A DNA stretch of 10,398 nt. It comes from a virus. Shown here one piece after another: positions 3,119-9,943 of this stretch. The position numbers were made by a program, and so were the translations under genes. Numbering within the stretch: position 1 is the first letter of the stretch; each line of letters opens with the position of its first letter. The notes under the pieces are model-generated. The model searched no databases. It had not been told where the DNA came from and worked only from the letters and a program-made list of their open reading frames with translations. The stretch lies in the UHGV virus genome UHGV-0267725; one strand, 5' to 3'.

Positions 3119-3150
3119 AAGATCCCGACACAAACATGAGCCGGGATCTT
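3119..3150. terminator. Bidirectional rho-independent terminator between the + strand gene block and the parDE cassette
   Basis: A 9-bp stem AAGATCCCG (3119-3127) pairs with CGGGATCTT (3142-3150) around a 14-nt loop. It is flanked by an A-run (3115-3120) and T-rich sequence (3149-3157), so a U-tract follows the hairpin on both strands; the minus-strand reading has 6 consecutive T. Confidence 0.55.
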
Positions 3151-3231
3151 TGATTTATATAGCCTACGAATCCGCCAGTAAGAGAGGGGGCGGACGGTTT
3201 ATTCTAACACCGGAATGATGTGGGTAAAAGT

Positions 3232-3531
3232 TTATAAGAAATCGGTTTCATAACTTTGCCCACCATGATAGATACCGACAATAAAGACTTTTCTGCCATC
3301 AACGGCAAAAGCAATAATCGTTCTGTGGCGGAAATGAGTTACCCGCATCCCCTGGCGAATATCATCGCGTTTATTGCCCCGATGCGGGAATGTAGAAAAC
3401 CCATCAAGATAATCAAGAAGCGCATTGGCATAATTGTCAGCAATGACGCTTCCTGCTTTCTCCGTTATGTATCTGTGCAGGTTGATTATCTGCTGTTCGG
3501 CCTCAGGAGTAATGATGACTTCATATGTCAT
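3232..3531 (-). CDS. parE: ParE-family toxin (RelE/ParE superfamily), 99 aa
   Basis: Minus-strand ATG (complement of 3529-3531) gives MTYEVIITPEAEQQIINLHRYITEK...FIVGIYHGGQSYETDFL. It starts 5 nt after the antitoxin stop. Size, position after an RHH antitoxin and the C-terminal R/H-rich region are typical of ParE toxins. The ORF-track extension to 3642 overlaps the antitoxin and is not used. Confidence 0.85.
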   Translation of the reverse strand: MTYEVIITPEAEQQIINLHRYITEKAGSVIADNYANALLDYLDGFSTFPHRGNKRDDIRQGMRVTHFRHRTIIAFAVDGRKVFIVGIYHGGQSYETDFL

Positions 3532-3536
3532 GCAGA

Positions 3537-3794
3537 TTACTTCCCGGATCGAATCGCAGCGCGAACCTGTGAAATGGAGCGTCCGTTGTTCGGGTTTTTG
3601 CGGATTGAATCCAGGGAGGGGGCGGCTGAATGCGTTAACCACGCTTCGATTGCTTTATCGCGCTCATTCAGTGCGCGAAGCCCTTCACGAATGACCTCGC
3701 TTTCTGAAGCATAGGCACCGGAAGCCACACGGGCGCGCACCATGTCAGCCATCTCGTTAGTTAATGTAATGCTGAATTGTTGGGTTGTACGCAT
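3537..3794 (-). CDS. parD: ParD-family antitoxin (ribbon-helix-helix, COG3609-like), 85 aa
   Basis: Minus-strand ATG (complement of 3792-3794) has a good SD (TGAGGT, 6-nt spacer). Translation MRTTQQFSITLTNEMADMVRARVASGAYASESEVIREGLRALNERDKAIEAWL matches the ParD/CC2985-type antitoxin pattern (SE-V-REGLR). It lies immediately upstream of the toxin. Confidence 0.85.
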   Translation of the reverse strand: MRTTQQFSITLTNEMADMVRARVASGAYASESEVIREGLRALNERDKAIEAWLTHSAAPSLDSIRKNPNNGRSISQVRAAIRSGK

Positions 3795-3829
3795 GGTAAA
3801 CCTCAAGGAGTAGGATAGAACACTATTCG

Positions 3830-3857
3830 ATGATAGCACGTTGCCTGTTGACGACAA
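3830..3857 (-). promoter_or_regulatory. Candidate sigma70 promoter for parDE
   Basis: On the minus strand, TTGTCG (complement of 3852-3857), a 16-nt spacer and TATCAT (complement of 3830-3835) lie about 35 nt upstream of the parD ATG. A + strand TTGACG (3847-3852) overlaps this, so a divergent promoter is possible. Based on sequence motif only. Confidence 0.25.
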
Positions 3858-3929
3858 CAGAAATCAGAGACAATATTGCCGCACGCCAGCCTGAACAACT
3901 GGCACCTGCTGCGCCAGCAGAGACAACCA

Positions 3930-4202
3930 ATGGCGCACAAAACCAAATTACACAATTCTGATACCGACCTTGCCATCCGGCACGGGCGGCGTTCTCACAC
4001 ATTCAAATATGACTGGTATCAGCACAATCCCTGCACCGAAGAACAGGCCGAGTGGCTGATTCAGAACTACCGCAGACGTGGTTACGAGTTTCAGAAAGAC
4101 CTCAGTTCTGACTTCCGACACTGGATAATTTCCGTCAGACTCCCTTATTCCGAACGCCCACCGCGTCCGTCCCGCACATTCCAGCAACGGATCTGGAGGT
4201 AA
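3930..4202 (+). CDS. Hypothetical protein (90 aa) translationally coupled to the DUF968 gene
   Basis: The ORF is open from TTG 3876 and the first ATG is at 3930. Stop TAA 4200-4202 lies inside the RBS/start region of the next gene (GGAGG 4195-4199, GTG 4204). The start is uncertain and no family was recognised. Confidence 0.45.
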   Translation: MAHKTKLHNSDTDLAIRHGRRSHTFKYDWYQHNPCTEEQAEWLIQNYRRRGYEFQKDLSSDFRHWIISVRLPYSERPPRPSRTFQQRIWR

Positions 4203-4203
4203 C

Positions 4204-5262
4204 GTGCGGGTATTACTTCGATCTGTTCCGGTACCGGAACTTGGGCTGGTGGTCCTTAAGCCTGGTCGTGAATCCATGCAGGTATTCCGCAGCGGTCGTG
4301 TACTGGTGGAGCCGGAACCGAAAAGCATGCGCGGTCTGCCGTCCGGAGTCGTTCCTGCCGTTCGCCAGCCATTGGCGGAGGATAAATCACTACTGCCATT
4401 TTTCAGCGATGAGCGGGTGATTCGTGCTGCTGGCGGCGCTGGCGCACTGTCTGACTGGCTGTTACGCCATGTTAATTCCTGCCAGTGGCCTCATGGTGAC
4501 TACCATCACAGCGAAACCGTCATACATCGTTACGGTACCGGTGCAATGGTGTTGTGCTGGCACTGCGACAACCAGCTGCGTGACCAGACTTCCGAATCAC
4601 TCGGGCAGCTTGCTCACCAAAACCTGTCAGCATGGATGATTGATGTCATCCGCCACGCAATGAATGGCGCGCAGGAGCGGGAATTATCGCTGGCTGAATT
4701 ATCCTGGTGGGCAACCATAAATAACGTAGCGGACGCACTACCGGAGACGGTATTACGTCGTTCGCTGGGATTACGCGCGGAAAAAATCCGCTCAGTATAC
4801 CGCGAAAGCGACATCATACCGGGAGAGCAGACAGCCACCAGCATACTGAAGCAGCGCACAAAAAATATTGCGCCGTTGCCTCACGCCCACCAGCAACAGA
4901 ATCCACCACAGGAAAAGACGGTGGTCAGCATTGCCGTTGATCCGGAGTCATCGGCTCAGTATCTCCAGCGCCAGAAACCACAACGGGAAGAGATGCCCGT
5001 ATACACGCGCTGGGTAAAAACGCAGAAATGCATGACGTGTGGCAATCAGGCAGATGATCCGCATCACATCATTGGTCATGGACTGGGAGGGATGGGAACA
5101 AAGGCTGATGATTTGTTTGTTATTCCGCTGTGCCGTAAATGCCATAGCGAACTACACGCCGGGGTAAAAGATTTTGAAGAAAAACACGGCAGCCAGCTGT
5201 TGTTGCTGATTCGTTTTTTAATGCACGCGAGAAATTCGGGTGTTCTGAAGTGGAAAGCATAA
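4204..5262 (+). CDS. DUF968-family phage protein with C-terminal HNH-like Cys/His motif (352 aa)
   Basis: GTG 4204 is 4 nt after GGAGG. The C-terminus has C-x2-C...HH-x14-C-x2-C-H (CMTCGNQADDPHHIIGHG...CRKCHSELH). Overall size and pattern resemble DUF968 proteins of E. coli prophages (from memory, YdfU-like). Stop TAA 5260-5262 abuts the rusA ATG. Confidence 0.85.
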   Translation: MRVLLRSVPVPELGLVVLKPGRESMQVFRSGRVLVEPEPKSMRGLPSGVVPAVRQPLAEDKSLLPFFSDERVIRAAGGAGALSDWLLRHVNSCQWPHGDYHHSETVIHRYGTGAMVLCWHCDNQLRDQTSESLGQLAHQNLSAWMIDVIRHAMNGAQERELSLAELSWWATINNVADALPETVLRRSLGLRAEKIRSVYRESDIIPGEQTATSILKQRTKNIAPLPHAHQQQNPPQEKTVVSIAVDPESSAQYLQRQKPQREEMPVYTRWVKTQKCMTCGNQADDPHHIIGHGLGGMGTKADDLFVIPLCRKCHSELHAGVKDFEEKHGSQLLLLIRFLMHARNSGVLKWKA

Positions 5263-5628
5263 ATGACTGAACGCATAGAATTTGTTTTGCCTTACCCGCC
5301 AACGGTGAACACCTACTGGCGACGTCGTGGCAGCACATATTTTGTATCAAAAGCCGGTGAGCGTTATCGCCGTGATGTGGCGCTTATTGTTCGCCAGCAG
5401 CAGTTGAAATTAAGCCTGTCCGGACGGCTGGCGATAAAGATTATTGCAGAGCCACCGGATAAACGTCGTCGTGACCTGGACAATATCCTGAAAGCACCAC
5501 TGGATGCGCTGACGCATGCCGGATTACTCATAGACGACGAGCAGTTTGATGAAATCAATATTGTGCGCGGTCAGCGCGTTCCTGGGGGGCGGCTGGGCGT
5601 GAAGATTTACAAAATTGAGAGTGAGTGA
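5263..5628 (+). CDS. rusA: RusA-family Holliday junction resolvase (121 aa)
   Basis: ATG 5263 directly follows the upstream TAA. Translation contains LPYPPTVNTYWRRRG, PDKRRRDLDNILKAPLDALTHAGLLIDDEQ and GGRLGV, matching the conserved RusA motifs, including the catalytic Asp cluster. Confidence 0.9.
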   Translation: MTERIEFVLPYPPTVNTYWRRRGSTYFVSKAGERYRRDVALIVRQQQLKLSLSGRLAIKIIAEPPDKRRRDLDNILKAPLDALTHAGLLIDDEQFDEINIVRGQRVPGGRLGVKIYKIESE

Positions 5629-6179
5629 TCGTAAATATGATATACCCGGAAATTACAGGCAAAAGCGGCGAGCATTTACGTCTAAAAACGCTGGAAGCCG
5701 TCTGGATCCAGGGGAAATTACGGATGTGGGGGCGTTGGTCGTATATAGGTGGTGGCAAAACAGGAAATATGTTCAATCAGTTGCTGGCATCCAAAAAACT
5801 GACAAAAACCGCAATCAATGAAGCCCTGCGTAGAATCAGGGAGTCAGGGATTGATAAACCAGAGCTGGAAGCATTCTTGCGAGAGATGATCGCTGGCAGA
5901 CAGAAGAGCTGGTTGTCTCACTGTACTGATGCAGAGGCGTTACGCATTGATGGGGTGATAAGTAAAGCGCTTGCACGTTATCCTGGATTGATTGATATCC
6001 TGCGGCAAAGATACGAAGGGCGGGGGATGAGTAAACGCAAAATGGCTGAATTGTTGAATGAGGTGCACCCGGAATGGTGTTTTAGTACATGCGAAAAGCG
6101 AATTGCTAATTGGTTGGCTGTTGCTGAATATGCGCTATACATCCCTATGCGAGAATCGTTTGCTCAAAAAATGTCTTGA
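5625..6179 (+). CDS. Q-position protein, putative late-gene antiterminator (184 aa from GTG 5625, or 180 aa from ATG 5637)
   Basis: The start overlaps the rusA stop (GTGA). The gene lies immediately upstream of a promoter-like element and a strong intrinsic terminator, which is the lambdoid Q/pR'/tR' position. The protein has no obvious Cys4 finger, so its family is uncertain (a non-lambda-type Q or a DUF). The functional call is positional inference only. Confidence 0.7.
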   Translation: MIVNMIYPEITGKSGEHLRLKTLEAVWIQGKLRMWGRWSYIGGGKTGNMFNQLLASKKLTKTAINEALRRIRESGIDKPELEAFLREMIAGRQKSWLSHCTDAEALRIDGVISKALARYPGLIDILRQRYEGRGMSKRKMAELLNEVHPEWCFSTCEKRIANWLAVAEYALYIPMRESFAQKMS

Positions 6180-6758: not shown

Positions 6759-7808
6759 ATGGCCAATACTGTAAAAATATCCAGTTGTGAGTTAATCAAC
6801 GCTGATTGCCTGGAATTTATCCAGACCTTACCGGAAAATTCTGTCGATCTGATAGTCACAGACCCGCCATACTTTAAAGTGAAGCCCGAGGGCTGGGATA
6901 ACCAGTGGAAGGGCGACGATGATTACCTGCAATGGCTGGAGCAGTGTCTGGCGCAGTTCTGGCGGGTACTGAAGCCTGCCGGAAGTCTTTACCTGTTCTG
7001 TGGTCATCGCCTGGCATCTGACACCGAAATCATGATGCGTGAGCGCTTTAATGTGCTGAACCACATTATCTGGGCGAAGCCGTCCGGACGCTGGAACGGA
7101 TGCAACAAGGAAAGCCTGCGGGCGTATTTCCCCGCCACAGAGCGCATTCTGTTCGCGGAACATTATCAGGGGCCGTATCGTCCGAAAGATGCCGGGTATG
7201 CGGCGAAGGGCAGTGCACTGAAACAGCATGTGATGGCCCCGCTGATTGCTTACTTTCGTGATGCGCGAGCTGCCCTGGGGATAACGGCAAAACAGATTGC
7301 AGATGCCACAGGAAAGAAAAACATGGTGTCGCACTGGTTCAGTGCCAGTCAGTGGCAGCTACCGAACGAAAGCGATTATCTGAAATTACAGTCGCTGTTT
7401 GCCCGGGTGGCAGAAGAGAAACATCAGCGCGGTGAACTGGAAAAGCCCCACCACCAGCTGGTGGATACGTATACGTCACTGAACCGGCAGTATGTGGAGC
7501 TGCAGAGTGAATATAAGCATCTGCGGCGGTATTTTGGTGTGACGGCGCAGGTGCCGTACACGGATGTGTGGACACATAAACCGGTGCAGTTCTATCCCGG
7601 GAAACATCCGTGCGAAAAACCGGCAGAAATGCTGCAGCAGATAATCAGCGCAAGCAGTCGTCCGGGTGACCTGGTTGCAGATTTTTTTATGGGCTCAGGT
7701 TCAACGGTAAAAGCTGCACTGGCGCTCGGGCGTCGTGCGATTGGCGTTGAACTGGAGACCGGACGTTTTGAGCAGACAGTCAGGGAAGTTCAGGATTTAA
7801 TCGTTTGA
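6759..7808 (+). CDS. DNA amino-methyltransferase, beta class (N6-adenine or N4-cytosine), 349 aa, orphan
   Basis: Motif IV DPPY (LIVTDPPYF) lies near the N-terminus and motif I FxGxGS (DLVADFFMGSGSTVKAALALGRRAIGVE) near the C-terminus. This motif order defines the beta class. No restriction endonuclease candidate is adjacent. Confidence 0.9.
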   Translation: MANTVKISSCELINADCLEFIQTLPENSVDLIVTDPPYFKVKPEGWDNQWKGDDDYLQWLEQCLAQFWRVLKPAGSLYLFCGHRLASDTEIMMRERFNVLNHIIWAKPSGRWNGCNKESLRAYFPATERILFAEHYQGPYRPKDAGYAAKGSALKQHVMAPLIAYFRDARAALGITAKQIADATGKKNMVSHWFSASQWQLPNESDYLKLQSLFARVAEEKHQRGELEKPHHQLVDTYTSLNRQYVELQSEYKHLRRYFGVTAQVPYTDVWTHKPVQFYPGKHPCEKPAEMLQQIISASSRPGDLVADFFMGSGSTVKAALALGRRAIGVELETGRFEQTVREVQDLIV

Positions 7809-7857: not shown

Positions 7858-7933
7858 GGCCCTTTAGCTCAGTGGTGAGAGCGAGCGACTCATAATCGCC
7901 AGGTCGCTGGTTCAAATCCAGCAAGGGCCACCA
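7858..7933 (+). tRNA. ileZ: tRNA with anticodon CAU, Ile2 (lysidine) type, ileZ-like; 76 nt
   Basis: I folded the cloverleaf by hand: acceptor GGCCCTT/AAGGGCC, D-stem GCTC/GAGC, anticodon loop CTCATAA, T-arm GCTGG-TTCAAAT-CCAGC, discriminator A, encoded CCA. The sequence closely resembles E. coli tRNA-Ile2 as I recall it. Confidence 0.9.
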
Positions 7934-7934
7934 A

Positions 7935-8011
7935 CCGCCATTAGCTCATCGGGATAGAACGCCAGCCTTCGAAGCTGGTTTCGCGGGGTTCGAGTCTCCG
8001 ATGGCGGTCCA
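7935..8011 (+). tRNA. argN: tRNA-Arg, anticodon UCG, argN-like; 77 nt
   Basis: Acceptor CCGCCAT/ATGGCGG, anticodon stem CCAGC/GCTGG with loop CTTCGAA, T-arm CGGGG-TTCGAGT-CTCCG with one G-U pair, encoded CCA. The D-stem has one mismatch. Confidence 0.88.
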
Positions 8012-8024
8012 TTATCGGTATTCT

Positions 8025-8101
8025 GCGTTGTTAGCTCAGCCGGACAGAGCAATTGCCTTCTAAGCAATCGGTCACTGGTTCGAATCCAGTACAACGCACC
8101 A
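8025..8101 (+). tRNA. argO: tRNA-Arg, anticodon UCU, argO-like; 77 nt
   Basis: Acceptor GCGTTGT/ACAACGC, anticodon stem ATTGC/GCAAT with loop CTTCTAA, T-arm ACTGG-TTCGAAT-CCAGT, discriminator A, encoded CCA. Confidence 0.9.
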
Positions 8102-8270: not shown

Positions 8271-8689
8271 ATGTTTGGTATTTTTGGTAAAAAGGCCCGC
8301 AGAGCGGCAACGGAAATTAAAAAGTTTTAAAAACGCGATCTGGCACAGGCGGTGATTAACGCCGCATACCTGGTGGCTTGTGCAGGTGGTGAGTGAGGCT
8401 TCCGATCGAACAGGTACTGCGTAATCAGCCAGCGCTGTCCGCGTTTACGTCAGAAATTAATGCGATGAGCGCAACCATTATCGGTCAGCTGGATACGAAC
8501 TTTAAAATTGGTCGTCGTGCGGCGTTACGTGAGATCGAGGATGTGAAACACGATACGCGTGAAGCGGAAGATGTGCTGGATGTGGCGGTGGCCATTGCGG
8601 AGGCAGACGGCGAAATTGAGCCGGAAGAGCGCAAGGTGCTGGAAGAGATTGCCGGTGTTCTGGGTCTTCGTATGGATAATCACCTGTGA
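8271..8689 (+). pseudogene. Decayed TerB-like (tellurite-resistance TerB family) gene; the 3' part (GTG 8393-8689, 98 aa) remains an intact ORF
   Basis: The reading is interrupted twice. ATG 8271 gives MFGIFGKKARRAATEIKKF and hits TAA at 8328-8330. The same frame continues as KRDLAQAVINAAYLVACAGGE and stops at TGA 8394-8396. A second frame, shifted relative to the first, then carries ...AEDVLDVAVAIAEADGEIEPEERKVLEEIAGVLGL to 8689. The two A-x-ADGE-type segments look like the two halves of a TerB fold split by a premature stop and a frameshift near 8390. Confidence 0.45.
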
Positions 8690-8853
8690 CGGTAAAACTG
8701 CGCCTGGTTGTGGCTGCACTCCTGCTGTTTCTGGTGGTGATGGTGGATTTCACCAGCAGAATCATGTCGGTGCTGGCGGATGGGGTGCTGGTCTGCGGCA
8801 TTGTGGTATTGCTGTGGCCGGTGATAAAAAGAAACAGCCTGCATAATGCTTGA
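8686..8853 (+). CDS. Candidate small membrane protein (55 aa, two hydrophobic segments)
   Basis: GTG 8686 overlaps the TerB-like ORF stop (GTGA); stop TGA 8851-8853. Translation is VTVKLRLVVAALLLFLVVMVDFTSRIMSVLADGVLVCGIVVLLWPVIKRNSLHNA. There is no SD, so translation would depend on coupling. It is below the ORF-track size cutoff. Confidence 0.35.
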   Translation: MTVKLRLVVAALLLFLVVMVDFTSRIMSVLADGVLVCGIVVLLWPVIKRNSLHNA

Positions 8854-9068
8854 TTTTTTTGTTTACTGTTTATTAAAAACACTTCTGCATGGTGAATCCC
8901 CCTGTGCGGAGGGGCGACTGGTGTAGGTAGCATTTATTATGTTATAGGCAAGCCGACGCGGGTTCAGTGACACCGGCTGAATTCACCGGGAGGCACCCGG
9001 CACCATGCGCTGCAACAAAAGTGTTATTTCTGTTTTTCTCAAACTATCATCGTTATCCCTTTATTTCC

Positions 9069-9095
9069 GGCTGCGCATGGCGCGGCCTTTTTTTT
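9069..9095 (+). terminator. Rho-independent terminator inside the long non-coding stretch
   Basis: An 8-bp stem GGCTGCGC (9069-9076) pairs with GCGCGGCC (9080-9087) with one G-U pair, around the loop ATG, followed by 8 T (9088-9095). Confidence 0.7.
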
Positions 9096-9276
9096 ACGAC
9101 CAGCCACTGGCAGATGGTCATCCTGTGATTTGATTCCGGTTCCGGCTTTTTAACTCTGTTCCTGTACACGGGAGAAATTCGATGTCGATTAATCGTTATG
9201 ATATTGGTTACACGAAGTACCACGTATGGTGTTGAGATAAAAAGCCTGGTGCCAGAGGTAAATGCAGCAGCATCAT

Positions 9277-9325
9277 AAAAAAAGAGCCAGCGCAGAAGAG
9301 AACGGGTAAAAGAGTCTGCGCTGGC
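9277..9325 (-). terminator. Candidate minus-strand terminator / 11-bp perfect inverted repeat
   Basis: GCCAGCGCAGA (9286-9296) and TCTGCGCTGGC (9315-9325) are perfect inverted repeats separated by 18 nt. On the minus strand the hairpin is followed by TCTTTTTTT (complement of 9277-9285). The loop is long for a classic terminator, so this could instead be a protein-binding site. Confidence 0.4.
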
Positions 9326-9504
9326 GTGGGGATATTCCCCGTGGAGAAATGATATGTAACACACATCGGGAACCTTTCTATATAAACATTATCATTATTG
9401 TCAATCATAACAGTCAGGTATTATGACGTTTATGCCTCAGGGACATCAGGAATTAACTGGTGGCTTTTTATTGTTGTCAGCTTCCGGATAACGGGAGACG
9501 GGGT

Positions 9505-9720
9505 ATGGACCAGATGGAAAAAATCACAACAGGTGTGTCATACACCACTTCAGCGGTGGGGACGGGATACTGGCTACTGCAGTTGCTGGACAAAGTCTCC
9601 CCATCCCAGTGGGTGGCAATAGGTGTATTGGGTAGCCTGGTGTTTGGCCTGCTGACGTATCTGACAAACCTTTATTTCAAGATTAAAGAAGACAAGCGTA
9701 AGGCTGCACGGGGAGAGTAA
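9505..9720 (+). CDS. S: Class II holin, phage 21 S-type pinholin with dual start (71 aa antiholin from ATG 9505, 68 aa holin from ATG 9514)
   Basis: GGGAGA (9493-9498) precedes ATG 9505. Translation [71 protein letters not shown] has the Met1/Met4 dual-start motif, two transmembrane segments and a basic C-terminus. It is near-identical in pattern to S21/EssD as I recall it. Confidence 0.9.
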
Positions 9721-9724
9721 TTCA

Positions 9725-9943
9725 ATGACTCAAAACTATGAACTGATTGTGAAAGGGACCCGCAATTTTGAGAATAAAGTTACGGTAATCTTAACGTTAC
9801 AGGACAAAGAACGTTTTGCCGGTGAAATTTTTGATCTGAACATCAACCTTGAGCGACTTGAAGGAGCTGGTTTGGATTATTATGAAGTTACTGCGGTAAA
9901 ACATGCCAAACAGTTCTTGAGAGATTTGGCTGAAAAAATATAA
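9725..9943 (+). CDS. Hypothetical protein (72 aa), AT-rich gene directly after the holin
   Basis: ATG 9725 is 7 nt after GGGAGAG (9711-9717). Translation is MTQNYELIVKGTRNFENKVTVILTLQDKERFAGEIFDLNINLERLEGAGLDYYEVTAVKHAKQFLRDLAEKI. GC is about 37% by my hand count. There is no SAR or transmembrane segment, so it is not an endolysin. Confidence 0.6.
   Translation: MTQNYELIVKGTRNFENKVTVILTLQDKERFAGEIFDLNINLERLEGAGLDYYEVTAVKHAKQFLRDLAEKI

Follow-up and report, generated by a model that had tools for sequence, protein, structure and literature searches.

The stretch 8854-9504 of the window (the whole 10,398 nucleotides of the UHGV virus genome UHGV-0267725 that were analysed) very probably consists of two convergent, independently transcribed Hfq-binding sRNA genes that flank the scar of a deleted nanS-p gene. 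The locus is real and regulatory, but it is not new: both RNAs had been reported from prophages of pathogenic E. coli, and so had the way in which they converge. Convergent sRNA genes were described at this site in Sp3, Sp4, Sp5, Sp9, Sp10, Sp11, Sp15 and Sp17 (Tree et al., 2014, PMC4104026), and PasD/STnc100 were placed upstream of the esterase gene and PasA/PasC downstream (Zhu et al., 2026). The site would correspond to the moron position of a lambdoid prophage that resembles Stx phages, with the Q-dependent late promoter region on one side and the lysis cassette on the other. In a lysogen, both sRNAs are most likely Hfq-dependent, trans-acting, base-pairing regulators of host mRNAs. Sequence identity and family membership are established in the window itself; for transcript ends, Hfq binding and chimeras, the evidence is from near-identical loci of other strains, and expression in the window's own host we infer. 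The original prediction of a structured non-coding sRNA locus with opposing terminators was right in its core. The two transcripts that it offered as alternatives, a minus-strand RNA of about 100 nt and a plus-strand RNA ending at 9095, are both true at once, the minus-strand RNA ending at 9277. Its statement that no convincing ORF lies between the small membrane ORF and the holin agrees with a Pfam search, in which no ORF in 8854-9504 gave a real match and the flanking genes did. The following features were assigned:

8393-8686, TerB (Pfam match)
8686-8850, DUF3927 (Pfam match)
8850-8879, plus strand, promoter-like region of the plus-strand sRNA (from alignment): -35 TTGATT at 8850-8855 (overlapping the DUF3927 stop), 18-bp spacer, -10 TAAAAA at 8874-8879, 7 bp, G(+1) at 8887
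8887-9095, plus strand, STnc100-family sRNA of ~209 nt (Rfam RF02076)
8887-9008, plus strand, structured 5' domain of this sRNA, with a closing stem GCAUGGUG/CACCAUGC around internal hairpins (MFE fold)
9009-9068, plus strand, unstructured U-rich linker, probable seed region
9069-9095, plus strand, intrinsic terminator of the STnc100-family sRNA
9096-9181, plus strand, former 5' UTR of nanS-p (SASA-family sialate esterase), with the SD GGGAGAAA at 9170-9177
9182-9278, plus strand, esterase scar (by comparison with phage 434)
9277-9388, minus strand, EcOnc32-type (Esr41-like) Hfq-binding sRNA; from its 3' end: U-tract 9277-9285, terminator stem-loop 9286-9325, SL2 9328-9340, single-stranded seed AUUUCUCCAC 9341-9350, SL1 9351-9367
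9377-9417, minus strand, promoter region of this sRNA with two overlapping candidates: P2 (-35 TTGACA 9404-9399, 16-bp spacer, -10 TATAGA 9382-9377, +1 at ~9367-9370) and P1, from a consensus scan (-35 CTGACT 9417-9412, 18-bp spacer, -10 GATAAT 9393-9388, +1 at ~9381)
9381-9399, minus strand, predicted 19-mer resembling a Fur box, AATAATGATAATGTTTATA, across the core promoter of the EcOnc32-type sRNA
9444-9472, plus strand, weak terminator-like hairpin CATCAG...CTGGTG with a T-run, 35-60 bp upstream of the holin start
9505-9717, P21-type holin, ATG at 9505 (Pfam match)

Counted by consensus alone, these signals are not above chance: the stretch holds four terminator-like sites (1.8 +/- 1.3 in shuffles) and two promoter-like sites (2.3 +/- 1.4). 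That the features are not accidental follows from the Rfam match to STnc100, the fold z-score of the minus-strand RNA and the 97% identity to loci with mapped 3' ends. The identity covers 9065-9707 and the loci of EPEC E2348/69 and EHEC Sakai, in which both hairpins coincide with experimentally mapped transcript 3' ends. The weak hairpin at 9444-9472 belongs to another block, 9437-9720, that is conserved with Stx2a phages at 91%.

A comparison with Rfam models, suggested with the original prediction, placed STnc100 above threshold on the plus strand. RF02076 matched 8861-9041 over the whole model (1-206/206) with 117.6 bits against a gathering score of 47 and E = 7e-26 (cmscan), and the alignment contained few non-canonical pairs. 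The copies of Stx2a phages, PP5 and Evi score 120-154 bits and PasD 38-41, and the window falls in the score range of the former. The MFE fold of the RNA reproduced the closing stem and the hairpins of the 5' domain. In a consensus of seven sequences all helices of this domain were kept, with three compensatory pairs and a covariation term of ~0; compared with shuffles, the fold energy of the plus-strand RNA was not significant (z = -0.94). The strong terminator proposed for this strand is present (stem 9069-9087 with eight pairs, seven of them G-C, then T8, ending at 9095). It is 97% identical to the PasD1 terminator over 31 nt, and the mapped PasD1 3' end, 1060432, corresponds to window position 9095. 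The published STnc_100 PCR primer F matches 8888-8907 exactly; with primers that match the window, STnc_100 was detected in STEC vesicles by RT-qPCR. The Stx2-phage copy of STnc100 is the Hfq-binding sRNA EcOnc27/sRNA103, and PasD was detected on Northern blots.

EcOnc27/sRNA103, downstream of stx2B, has the same position after moron genes and before the esterase gene, and the Stx2a-phage copy of STnc100 shares the 5' domain with 81% identity over 8869-9007. However, the window copy follows TerB/DUF3927 and the Stx2-phage copy stx2AB, and the last third, 9008-9095 (linker and terminator), departs from the Stx2-phage version, matches phage JLK-2012 and has its terminator in common with PasD. 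PasD1 and PasD2 of EPEC E2348/69 (Pearl Mizrahi, 2021; Zhu, Shabalina & Storz, 2026) occupy the same locus and have a similar first 26 nt (86%, 29-column alignment), the same fold of the 5' domain and the same promoter layout, but the middle 150 nt differ and the seed UGUGAG is replaced by CCCUUUAUUUCC in the window. Naming the plus-strand RNA PasD was therefore rejected: Zhu et al. use a match over >75% of PasD as the criterion, to which the seed UGUGAG was added here, and the RNA lacks this seed and aligns to no more than PasD nt 1-26 and 143-173. By analogy with PasD, the linker would hold the seed of the window RNA. Since the PasD seed is missing, the RIL-seq targets of PasD are not transferable; the linker differs from that of EcOnc27 as well, so that no target can be carried over and those of the plus-strand RNA are presumptive. 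The published EcOnc13 and EcOnc27 probes had no match in the compared loci.

On the minus strand, the 11-bp perfect inverted repeat (9286-9296/9315-9325) with its U-tract at 9277-9285, the GGGGA-AUA-UCCCC hairpin at 9328-9340 and the TTGACA at 9404-9399, all listed in the original prediction, are present and belong to a single gene, as the terminator, the second stem-loop and the promoter of EcOnc32. The RNA is exceptionally stable in its predicted fold (z = -7.1; 0/200 shuffles as stable). EcOnc32 of O157:H7 Sakai (Sp3; Tree et al., 2014, PMC4104026) is the same gene, on the minus strand at the same position, convergent with a plus-strand sRNA and ~140 bp upstream of the holin. The window has zero mismatches to Sakai Sp3 over 9275-9435, the EcOnc32 Northern probe matches at 35/35 positions (9332-9366), and the Hfq-CRAC peak of EcOnc32 maps to 9271-9360. 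EcOnc32 was recovered in 5/5 Hfq-CRAC experiments and gave a Northern band of ~112 nt (PMC4104026); among the rows of that table compared here, its Hfq-CRAC signal is the second highest. The table entry carries neither function nor targets (Tree et al., 2014, PMC4104026), EcOnc numbers were not found in the main text of that paper, and we found no assigned function for this RNA in the literature. In the EcOnc32 loci, Sakai Sp3 and EPEC PP4, the block from the plus-strand terminator to the holin is shared at 97% identity, but the plus-strand partner is PasD-type (EcOnc13/PasD1) and not STnc100-type as in the window.

In EPEC the sequence is identical over 9278-9435 and is catalogued in RIL-seq under the CDS label E2348C_1013, with a 3' end at 1060613 that equals window position 9276. 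This RNA was 7.5-fold lower in the delta-hfq strain (log2 -2.9, padj 1e-23), it was RNA2 in 100% of the significant chimeras under both conditions, and it accounted for ~808,000 of 18.2 million RIL-seq fragments. Across variants, compensatory changes were seen in SL1 (U-A/C-G, G-C/U-G) and in the terminator (C-G/U-A, G-C/A-U), so that the structural covariation proposed as a check is supported for the minus-strand RNA and thin for the plus-strand RNA (three pairs, seven sequences). The variants were collected with a pattern that fixes the seed, and seed conservation inside the set is thus circular; as MAFFT misplaced the 5' arm of Esr41 relative to the window type, helices were read from individual folds instead. 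The minus-strand unit is 99-100% conserved in 565 complete E. coli genomes, and about 11% of the complete genomes of this species carry the RNA; the motif UUUCUCCA also occurs in an independently found Stx2a-phage unit. A distant blastn search of the unit against 50,697 phage genomes recovered phage Evi only. A search of genome contigs with the 16-mer TTTCTCCAYGGGGWAT gave nearly exclusively chance matches in unrelated phyla and one useful Shigella locus; its matches in viral contigs needed computational filtering.

The 5' end of the minus-strand RNA lies between 9367 and 9388 and is uncertain within this range, with lengths of 91, 105 or ~112 nt and three overlapping readings of the promoter; the Northern band of EcOnc32, at ~112 nt, points to a start upstream of 9381. 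Every collected variant has TTGACA unchanged, and so do true Esr41, PasA, PasC and the Stx2a-phage unit. The 19-mer AATAATGATAATGTTTATA matches GATAATGATAATCATTATC at 15/19 positions, the best in the whole window on either strand, and only 0.1% of 2000 local dinucleotide shuffles reached this score. Under identical scoring, the genuine fepB-entC Fur region gave 14-15, the variants v7 and v11 14-15, and O157 Esr41, the Stx2a unit and PasA 10-12. Control of the minus-strand sRNA by Fur is a prediction from sequence. In the text of the Waters paper, neither the seed sequence of Esr41 nor Fur control was found.

The closest described relative outside this type of locus is Esr41/EcOnc14 (RF02676, SpLE1 of EHEC). 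Both RNAs share the layout of SL1, a single-stranded U-rich/CUCC seed, SL2 and a Rho-independent terminator; the central stretch is near-identical (CAUUUCUCCACGGGGAAUAUCCCC vs CAUUUUCUCCAUGGGGUAUUCCC), and the TTGACA -35 element, Hfq dependence and iron-related partners or targets, met at the RBS, are common to both. The minus-strand RNA scored 28 bits in the RF02676 model, below the gathering threshold of 102, with E = 0.0014 and a full-length alignment, and true Esr41 scored 108.6 bits. It may thus be regarded as a sub-threshold relative of Esr41. Differences are its greater length (91-112 vs ~74 nt), another SL1 sequence, a much larger terminator loop and the Fur-box-like element, which is absent from Esr41 (12/19). 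The context differs too, as Esr41 lies in SpLE1/O-island 43/48 beside iha and the window is a lambdoid late region without similarity in the flanks. The interactome of Esr41 was described as RyhB-like. To RyhB, core-genome encoded and Fur-repressed, the minus-strand RNA has no sequence relationship and is comparable only in the way it may work: Hfq dependence, partners in iron homeostasis and a predicted Fur-box-like site over the promoter. PasA/PasC (EcOnc51/52) are positional equivalents: they have a TTGACA promoter and lie on the minus strand in the interval from the esterase 3' end to the holin. They share the 5' motifs ATATAGAA, ATGTG and TACAT, and the 3' stem arm GCGCUGGC with the U-tract, but differ in the central body and seed (the GCCAGCACC region), lack UUUCUCCA and do not match the Esr41 model. 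An assignment to PasA/PasC was also rejected, only 15-16 nt of the terminator matching in blastn.

The best-supported partner of the E2348C_1013 RNA is entC, with 263 chimeras to the 5' UTR (odds ratio 14, p = 4e-165; EPEC RIL-seq). The chimera site spans the SD and AUG of entC, and the seed-restricted duplex with this site reached -22.7 kcal/mol, a value attained by 0/1000 target shuffles. Seed-restricted pairing was significant for entC alone and not for rpoS or dnaK; when the whole sRNA was used and shuffled, the duplexes with entC (p ~0.1), rpoS and dnaK were all not significant. The odds ratios of rpoS (2.8) and dnaK (4.4) are low, which is to be expected when an Hfq ligand is so abundant. 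For Esr41, compensatory mutations have shown action at the RBS of iron genes. Modelled on the action of Esr41 at chuA, cirA and bfr, the anti-Shine-Dalgarno seed would pair with the region where translation of entC, a gene of enterobactin synthesis, is initiated and would block ribosome binding, repression being the presumed direction of regulation. Predicted pairing of the seed at the entC RBS is the best-supported mechanism for the minus-strand RNA. This strong seed pairing and the Fur-box-like site over the promoter are what is new here, both as predictions.

Between the two RNA genes lie the remains of an esterase gene. The segment 9065-9206 is 92% identical to 43339-43480 of phage 434, where a terminator, an RBS and the esterase start are annotated. 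The first eight esterase codons are retained at 9182-9205 (MSINRYDI vs MSIKHYDV in 434), followed by the last 23 codons and the stop at 9207-9278, one base out of frame (VTRSTTYGVEIKSLVPEVNAAAS vs VTKNAAYGVEIESLMLEINAPAA in 434). The missing internal part amounts to ~1.77 kb (434 locus 3143-4912), and the identical scar is found in E2348/69 PP4 and Sakai Sp3. It is very improbable, and largely refuted, that the whole region is junk from this deletion, with orphan terminators and with RNAs elsewhere that are non-functional by-products. In line with such a view, 9096-9278 is truly a deletion scar and the consensus counts of promoters and terminators do not exceed shuffles, but both RNA genes lie outside the scar and occur also beside intact esterase genes, the minus-strand unit is nearly invariant across the E. 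coli genomes that carry it, and Hfq binding and target chimeras are specific and reproducible, with strong complementarity between seed and entC. The scenario of a decayed gene, named beforehand as a possible refutation, therefore holds for the esterase remains at 9096-9278 and does not apply to the hairpins on either side, which are conserved and belong to expressed sRNAs. A genuine coding gene is likewise very improbable. The 17-codon ORF noted earlier does have its ATG at 9182 and a good SD, GGGAGAAA (9170-9177), and reads MSINRYDIGYTKYHVWC*, but it does not stand as a small protein, since 9182-9235 is a read-through of the deletion junction with eight esterase codons and nine out-of-frame codons. 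The minus-strand ORF 9053-9364 is annotated by RefSeq in Sakai and E2348/69 (ECs_0817/E2348C_1013, 'hypothetical protein'); however, it spans the junction, runs antisense to the plus-strand terminator and covers the EcOnc32 RNA, is called frameshifted or incomplete in other genomes and gave no Pfam match that passed the threshold, and the E2348C_1013 RNA behaves as an sRNA, being always RNA2 in chimeras.

Other alternatives concern how the two RNAs arise and act. The plus-strand RNA would start at ~8887 from a candidate promoter of its own, inferred from sequence, and end at the terminator 9069-9095; the +1 was taken from the RNA-seq-defined 5' end of PasD1/PasD2, and the layout TTGnyT-18-TAAAAA-6/7-G is kept in six loci with differing upstream contexts (DUF3927 or stx2B). 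It is unlikely that this RNA is instead a 3' UTR-derived sRNA, produced by processing or termination at the end of the upstream TerB-DUF3927 mRNA, with 9069-9095 primarily an operon terminator. The RNA begins 34 nt after the DUF3927 stop with no terminator between, the element follows stx2B by 75 nt in Stx2 phages, where EcOnc27 gives bands of ~235 and 247 nt, and both promoter elements proposed (-10 TAAAAA, -35 TTGATT) are weak. Against this, the promoter layout is conserved, together with exactly the 5' sequence GCAUGGUG, in loci with unrelated genes upstream, and PasD1/2 have sharp RNA-seq 5' ends at G(+1) and are very abundant in lysogens. The own promoter and 3' UTR processing could both supply the RNA. 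For the minus-strand RNA, we consider it quite unlikely that it acts mainly in cis, as an antisense to the Q-dependent late transcript that tunes lysis timing or silences leaky late transcription in the lysogen. It is extremely abundant and along its whole length complementary to the part of the late transcript that lies 117-228 nt before the holin ATG, PasA at the equivalent position forms chimeras with esterase mRNAs and occurs in a long form that overlaps the 3' end of the esterase gene, and the convergent placement is kept in many prophages. However, the significant EPEC chimeras (activating sheet) involve transcripts of the host or of other islands, namely entC, the rpoS region, dnaK and an IE2 intergenic region, and not the neighbouring holin leader, and the relative Esr41 lies outside any lysis cassette and acts in trans. 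Roles in cis and in trans are not exclusive. Finally, a porin-regulating RNA of the IpeX type, cited as a precedent just upstream of the DLP12 holin, is refuted as a homolog and has next to no probability; only the general idea of lambdoid regulatory RNAs between Q and the lysis genes speaks for it. Alignment of 8600-9800 to DLP12 572500-578500, as had been suggested, matched in the holin CDS alone (blastn, word size 7, 6 kb), and an Rfam scan of the same DLP12 segment found no sRNA family and thus none shared with the window. IpeX arises as a part of the transcript of the porin gene nmpC, and the window has no porin gene. Moreover, nmpC is a minus-strand gene whose 3' end points towards quuD, so that IpeX is located elsewhere in DLP12 and not just upstream of the holin.

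For annotation, the stretch is better labelled as two sRNA genes and an esterase pseudogene remnant, and the RefSeq call of a minus-strand 'hypothetical protein' in related genomes should be dropped. The prophage sRNAs of such loci plug into the host Hfq networks in EPEC and EHEC, and in each of the two published datasets the minus-strand RNA ranks with the most abundant ligands of Hfq. A testable hypothesis follows from the predicted Fur box and the strong predicted pairing at the entC RBS, namely that a prophage controls enterobactin synthesis. A broader proposal is offered tentatively and is rather doubtful: the EcOnc32-type RNA may be an overlooked, very abundant sRNA, concealed by the spurious protein annotation ECs_0817/E2348C_1013, that is repressed by Fur, induced by iron limitation and blocks entC translation, and may form one modular superfamily of minus-strand sRNAs with Esr41 as a diverged sibling, the Stx2a-phage unit and PasA/PasC at the esterase-holin junction. 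If true, it would be a horizontally spread RyhB-like regulator by which a prophage retunes the siderophore production of its host.

The window corresponds to the late-regulatory region of an E. coli prophage of the lambdoid, Stx-phage-like type, and its features are ordered as follows.

Beginning of the gene order: nin-region genes, interrupted by a ParDE insertion
3235-3785, minus strand: inserted pair of toxin ParE (Pfam E = 2e-10) and antitoxin ParD (2e-7), encoded opposite to the nin-like region around it
5625-6176: Q antiterminator
6759-7805: DNA methylase
7858-8101, plus strand: three tRNAs, Met(CAT), Arg(TCG) and Arg(TCT) by ARAGORN
8393-8686: TerB-family gene
8686-8850: DUF3927 gene
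9053-9364, minus strand: ORF, RefSeq 'hypothetical protein' in relatives (ECs_0817 in Sakai; E2348C_1013 / E2348C_RS28255 in E2348/69)
9444-9472, plus strand: weak terminator-like hairpin with T-run, 35-60 bp upstream of the holin ATG
9505 (ATG): P21-type holin, directly after the stretch under study (8854-9504)
After the holin: DUF1327

The tRNA trio corresponds to ileZ-argN-argO of Stx phages; its first member is annotated as tRNA-Ile in RefSeq/GenBank entries of related records, whereas ARAGORN calls Met(CAT). The gene order is shared by Stx2a phages, in which stx2AB replaces TerB/DUF3927 and the holin is preceded by an intact esterase gene. The hairpin at 9444-9472 sits inside a block (9437-9720) that is 91% identical to Stx2a phages, and could be a late-transcript attenuator or a holin-leader structure.

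An sRNA locus had been proposed for 8854-9504 from the raw sequence alone; this main idea is right, and the proposal as a whole is partly supported. The plus-strand terminator was confirmed (stem 9069-9087 plus T8), and the 11-bp inverted repeat with its minus-strand U-tract (9277-9325), the GGGGA/UCCCC hairpin (9328-9340) and the minus-strand TTGACA (9404-9399) are all present. Plain consensus promoter and terminator counts in the stretch were not above shuffles, thus significance must rest on other evidence. In EPEC, the RNA-seq-defined ends of the prophage sRNA PasD1 fall on window 8887 and 9095, and the 3'-most read end of the minus-strand RNA (1060613) equals window 9276. These mapped 3' ends show that both predicted hairpins are transcript ends in vivo. 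The precedent invoked in the original prediction, IpeX of DLP12, was wrong in both homology and position.

On the plus strand, 8861-9041 matches the full Rfam model of STnc100 (117.6 bits, threshold 47, E = 7e-26). With this model, a Stx2a phage scores 153.8 bits, EPEC prophage PP5 123.6 and phage Evi 119.9, but PasD1/PasD2 only 38-41; therefore the window copy is STnc100 proper and not PasD. It shares with PasD the first ~26 nt and a 97% identical terminator, whereas its linker lacks the PasD seed. From the PasD1 ends, a 209-nt RNA is predicted. The upstream layout TTGnyT-18-TAAAAA-6/7-G(+1) is kept behind unrelated genes, which argues for an own promoter. In the predicted fold, several hairpins form a closed 5' domain (8887-9008), followed by ~60 nt of U-rich, unstructured linker and the terminator. 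A consensus fold common to seven divergent 5' domains, with three compensatory pairs, gives this modest support; the fold energy of the plus-strand RNA is not significant by itself. The family has a modular build, in which four or more types of 5' domain occur with three or more linker/terminator modules (loci L007, L054, L038, L087 and L003 and window 8887-9095), the terminator being CCCCUCACCGGAGGGG in L054/L038 versus GGCUGCGCAUGGCGCGGCC in the window. This pattern suggests recombination within the sRNA gene. Among relatives, the copy 3' of stx2B is EcOnc27/sRNA103, which binds Hfq and, when overexpressed, increases fimZ and espA transcript levels; a forward primer of the same sequence as window 8888-8907 served to detect STnc_100 in STEC vesicles, and PasD1/2 are abundant and Northern-validated.

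The minus-strand RNA is of the EcOnc32 type. E2348/69 PP4 and Sakai Sp3 share 97% identity with window 9065-9707 and do not differ from it at all in 9278-9435. EcOnc32 was reported on the Sp3 minus strand (901574-901662): 5/5 Hfq-CRAC experiments detected it, only AgvB1 gave a higher signal among the table rows considered, and its Northern band was ~112 nt (Tree et al., 2014). Its interval maps onto window 9271-9360, and the published probe matches 9332-9366 exactly. In EPEC the RNA is catalogued as CDS E2348C_1013. Its level is 7.5-fold down without Hfq, and in RIL-seq it has a U6 tract, eight unique partners and the position of second RNA in 100% of significant chimeras. Under the activating condition it contributes ~808,000 of 18.2 million fragments, ~4% of those associated with Hfq and more than ArcZ, SroC, CyaR, Spot42 or RyhB (Pearl Mizrahi, 2021, Table S3). 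Despite this abundance, the RNA (PP4, NC_011601 1060613-1060672, minus) is absent from the newly named sRNAs of that study. It was filed as a CDS because of the annotated ORF 9053-9364. This ORF crosses the esterase deletion junction and covers the sRNA, and is therefore very likely a spurious gene call; other related genomes annotate it as frameshifted or partial.

The predicted structure of the 91-nt core (z = -7.1) consists of stem-loop SL1, single-stranded AUUUCUCCAC, stem-loop SL2 and the terminator. The Esr41 Rfam model aligns over its full length (28 bits, E = 0.0014), under the curated threshold of 102; in the central 32 nt the RNA is almost the same as Esr41. Variants from prophage contigs carry compensatory changes in SL1 and the terminator. 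An unannotated Esr41-like unit of the same plan was found independently in Stx2a phage Stx2a_1447 (L010 6216-6293, minus strand; 28.1 bits), directly after the intact esterase gene, with UUUUUUCUCCAUAGG in single-stranded position, promoter TTGACA-17-TAAAAA and a strong terminator. It may be one of the unnamed EcOnc RNAs. In other prophages the equivalent position is occupied by PasA and PasC, whose body is different, although their promoter, their 3' stem arm and some of their 5' motifs are shared. The minus-strand RNA, its variants, Esr41, the Stx2a-phage unit, PasA and PasC all have the same -35, TTGACA. Candidate start sites are 9367-9370, ~9381 and ~9388, and the ~112-nt band favours the longer forms.

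Between the two sRNA genes lies the remnant of an esterase gene. In phage 434, the counterpart of window 9065-9206 holds the terminator, the RBS and the initial 25 nt of a SASA-family (nanS-p) esterase gene, and that of 9223-9292 the last codons of this gene; ~1.77 kb are deleted relative to phage 434. The predicted 17-codon ORF at 9182 does exist, but represents read-through of the deletion junction: it starts MSINRYDI (434 esterase: MSIKHYDV), and from 9207, one base out of frame, VTRSTTYGVEIKSLVPEVNAAAS* is the esterase C-terminus. An identical scar is present in EPEC PP4 and Sakai Sp3, and many E. coli genomes carry block 9065-9504 at ~97.5% identity. Of 5,426 complete E. coli genomes only 2 have the whole 651-bp combination, as does phage Evi, whereas the STnc100-type sRNA and the esterase-deleted EcOnc32 block are singly common (644 and 585 genomes). 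These counts suggest that 8854-9504 arose by recent recombination, with the junction at the shared terminator.

Repression of chuA, cirA and bfr by Esr41 has been validated; it depends on Hfq and takes place at the RBS. The strongest EPEC partner of the window-type RNA is the entC 5'UTR, with 263 chimeras at an odds ratio of 14 (p = 4e-165; chimera site -42 to +6). The seed region (nt 11-31) is predicted to pair with entC UUUUGUGGAGGAUGAUAUGG, including SD and AUG, at -22.7 kcal/mol, which 0/1000 shuffled entC targets reach (mean -9.3 +/- 2.5). The partners rpoS and dnaK are doubtful, since they have no significant predicted pairing and low odds ratios. Exactly overlying the core promoter of the minus-strand sRNA is a Fur-box-like 19-mer (9381-9399, minus strand, 15/19). 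No other site in the window matches as well (local shuffle p ~0.001), and the genuine fepB-entC sites reach an equal score when scored in the same way. Two diverged variants retain the 19-mer, which O157 Esr41, PasA and the Stx2a-phage unit lack. No publication was found in which Fur controls Esr41 or EcOnc32. We predict that the minus-strand sRNA is controlled by Fur and represses entC.

For Sp3, Sp4, Sp5, Sp9, Sp10, Sp11, Sp15 and Sp17, Tree et al. (2014) described convergent sRNA genes that are located 3' of the Q-antiterminated promoter and are related but not identical. Zhu, Shabalina and Storz (2026) placed PasD/STnc100 upstream and PasA/PasC downstream of the esterase gene and noted Esr41-model matches near PasD. 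The locus is thus already known, and it is a real, functional-looking sRNA locus. This study adds the explicit equation of EcOnc32, E2348C_1013 and the Esr41-like RNA, the dissection of the esterase scar, the recognition of the RefSeq minus-strand ORF as spurious, the entC pairing statistics and the Fur-box prediction.
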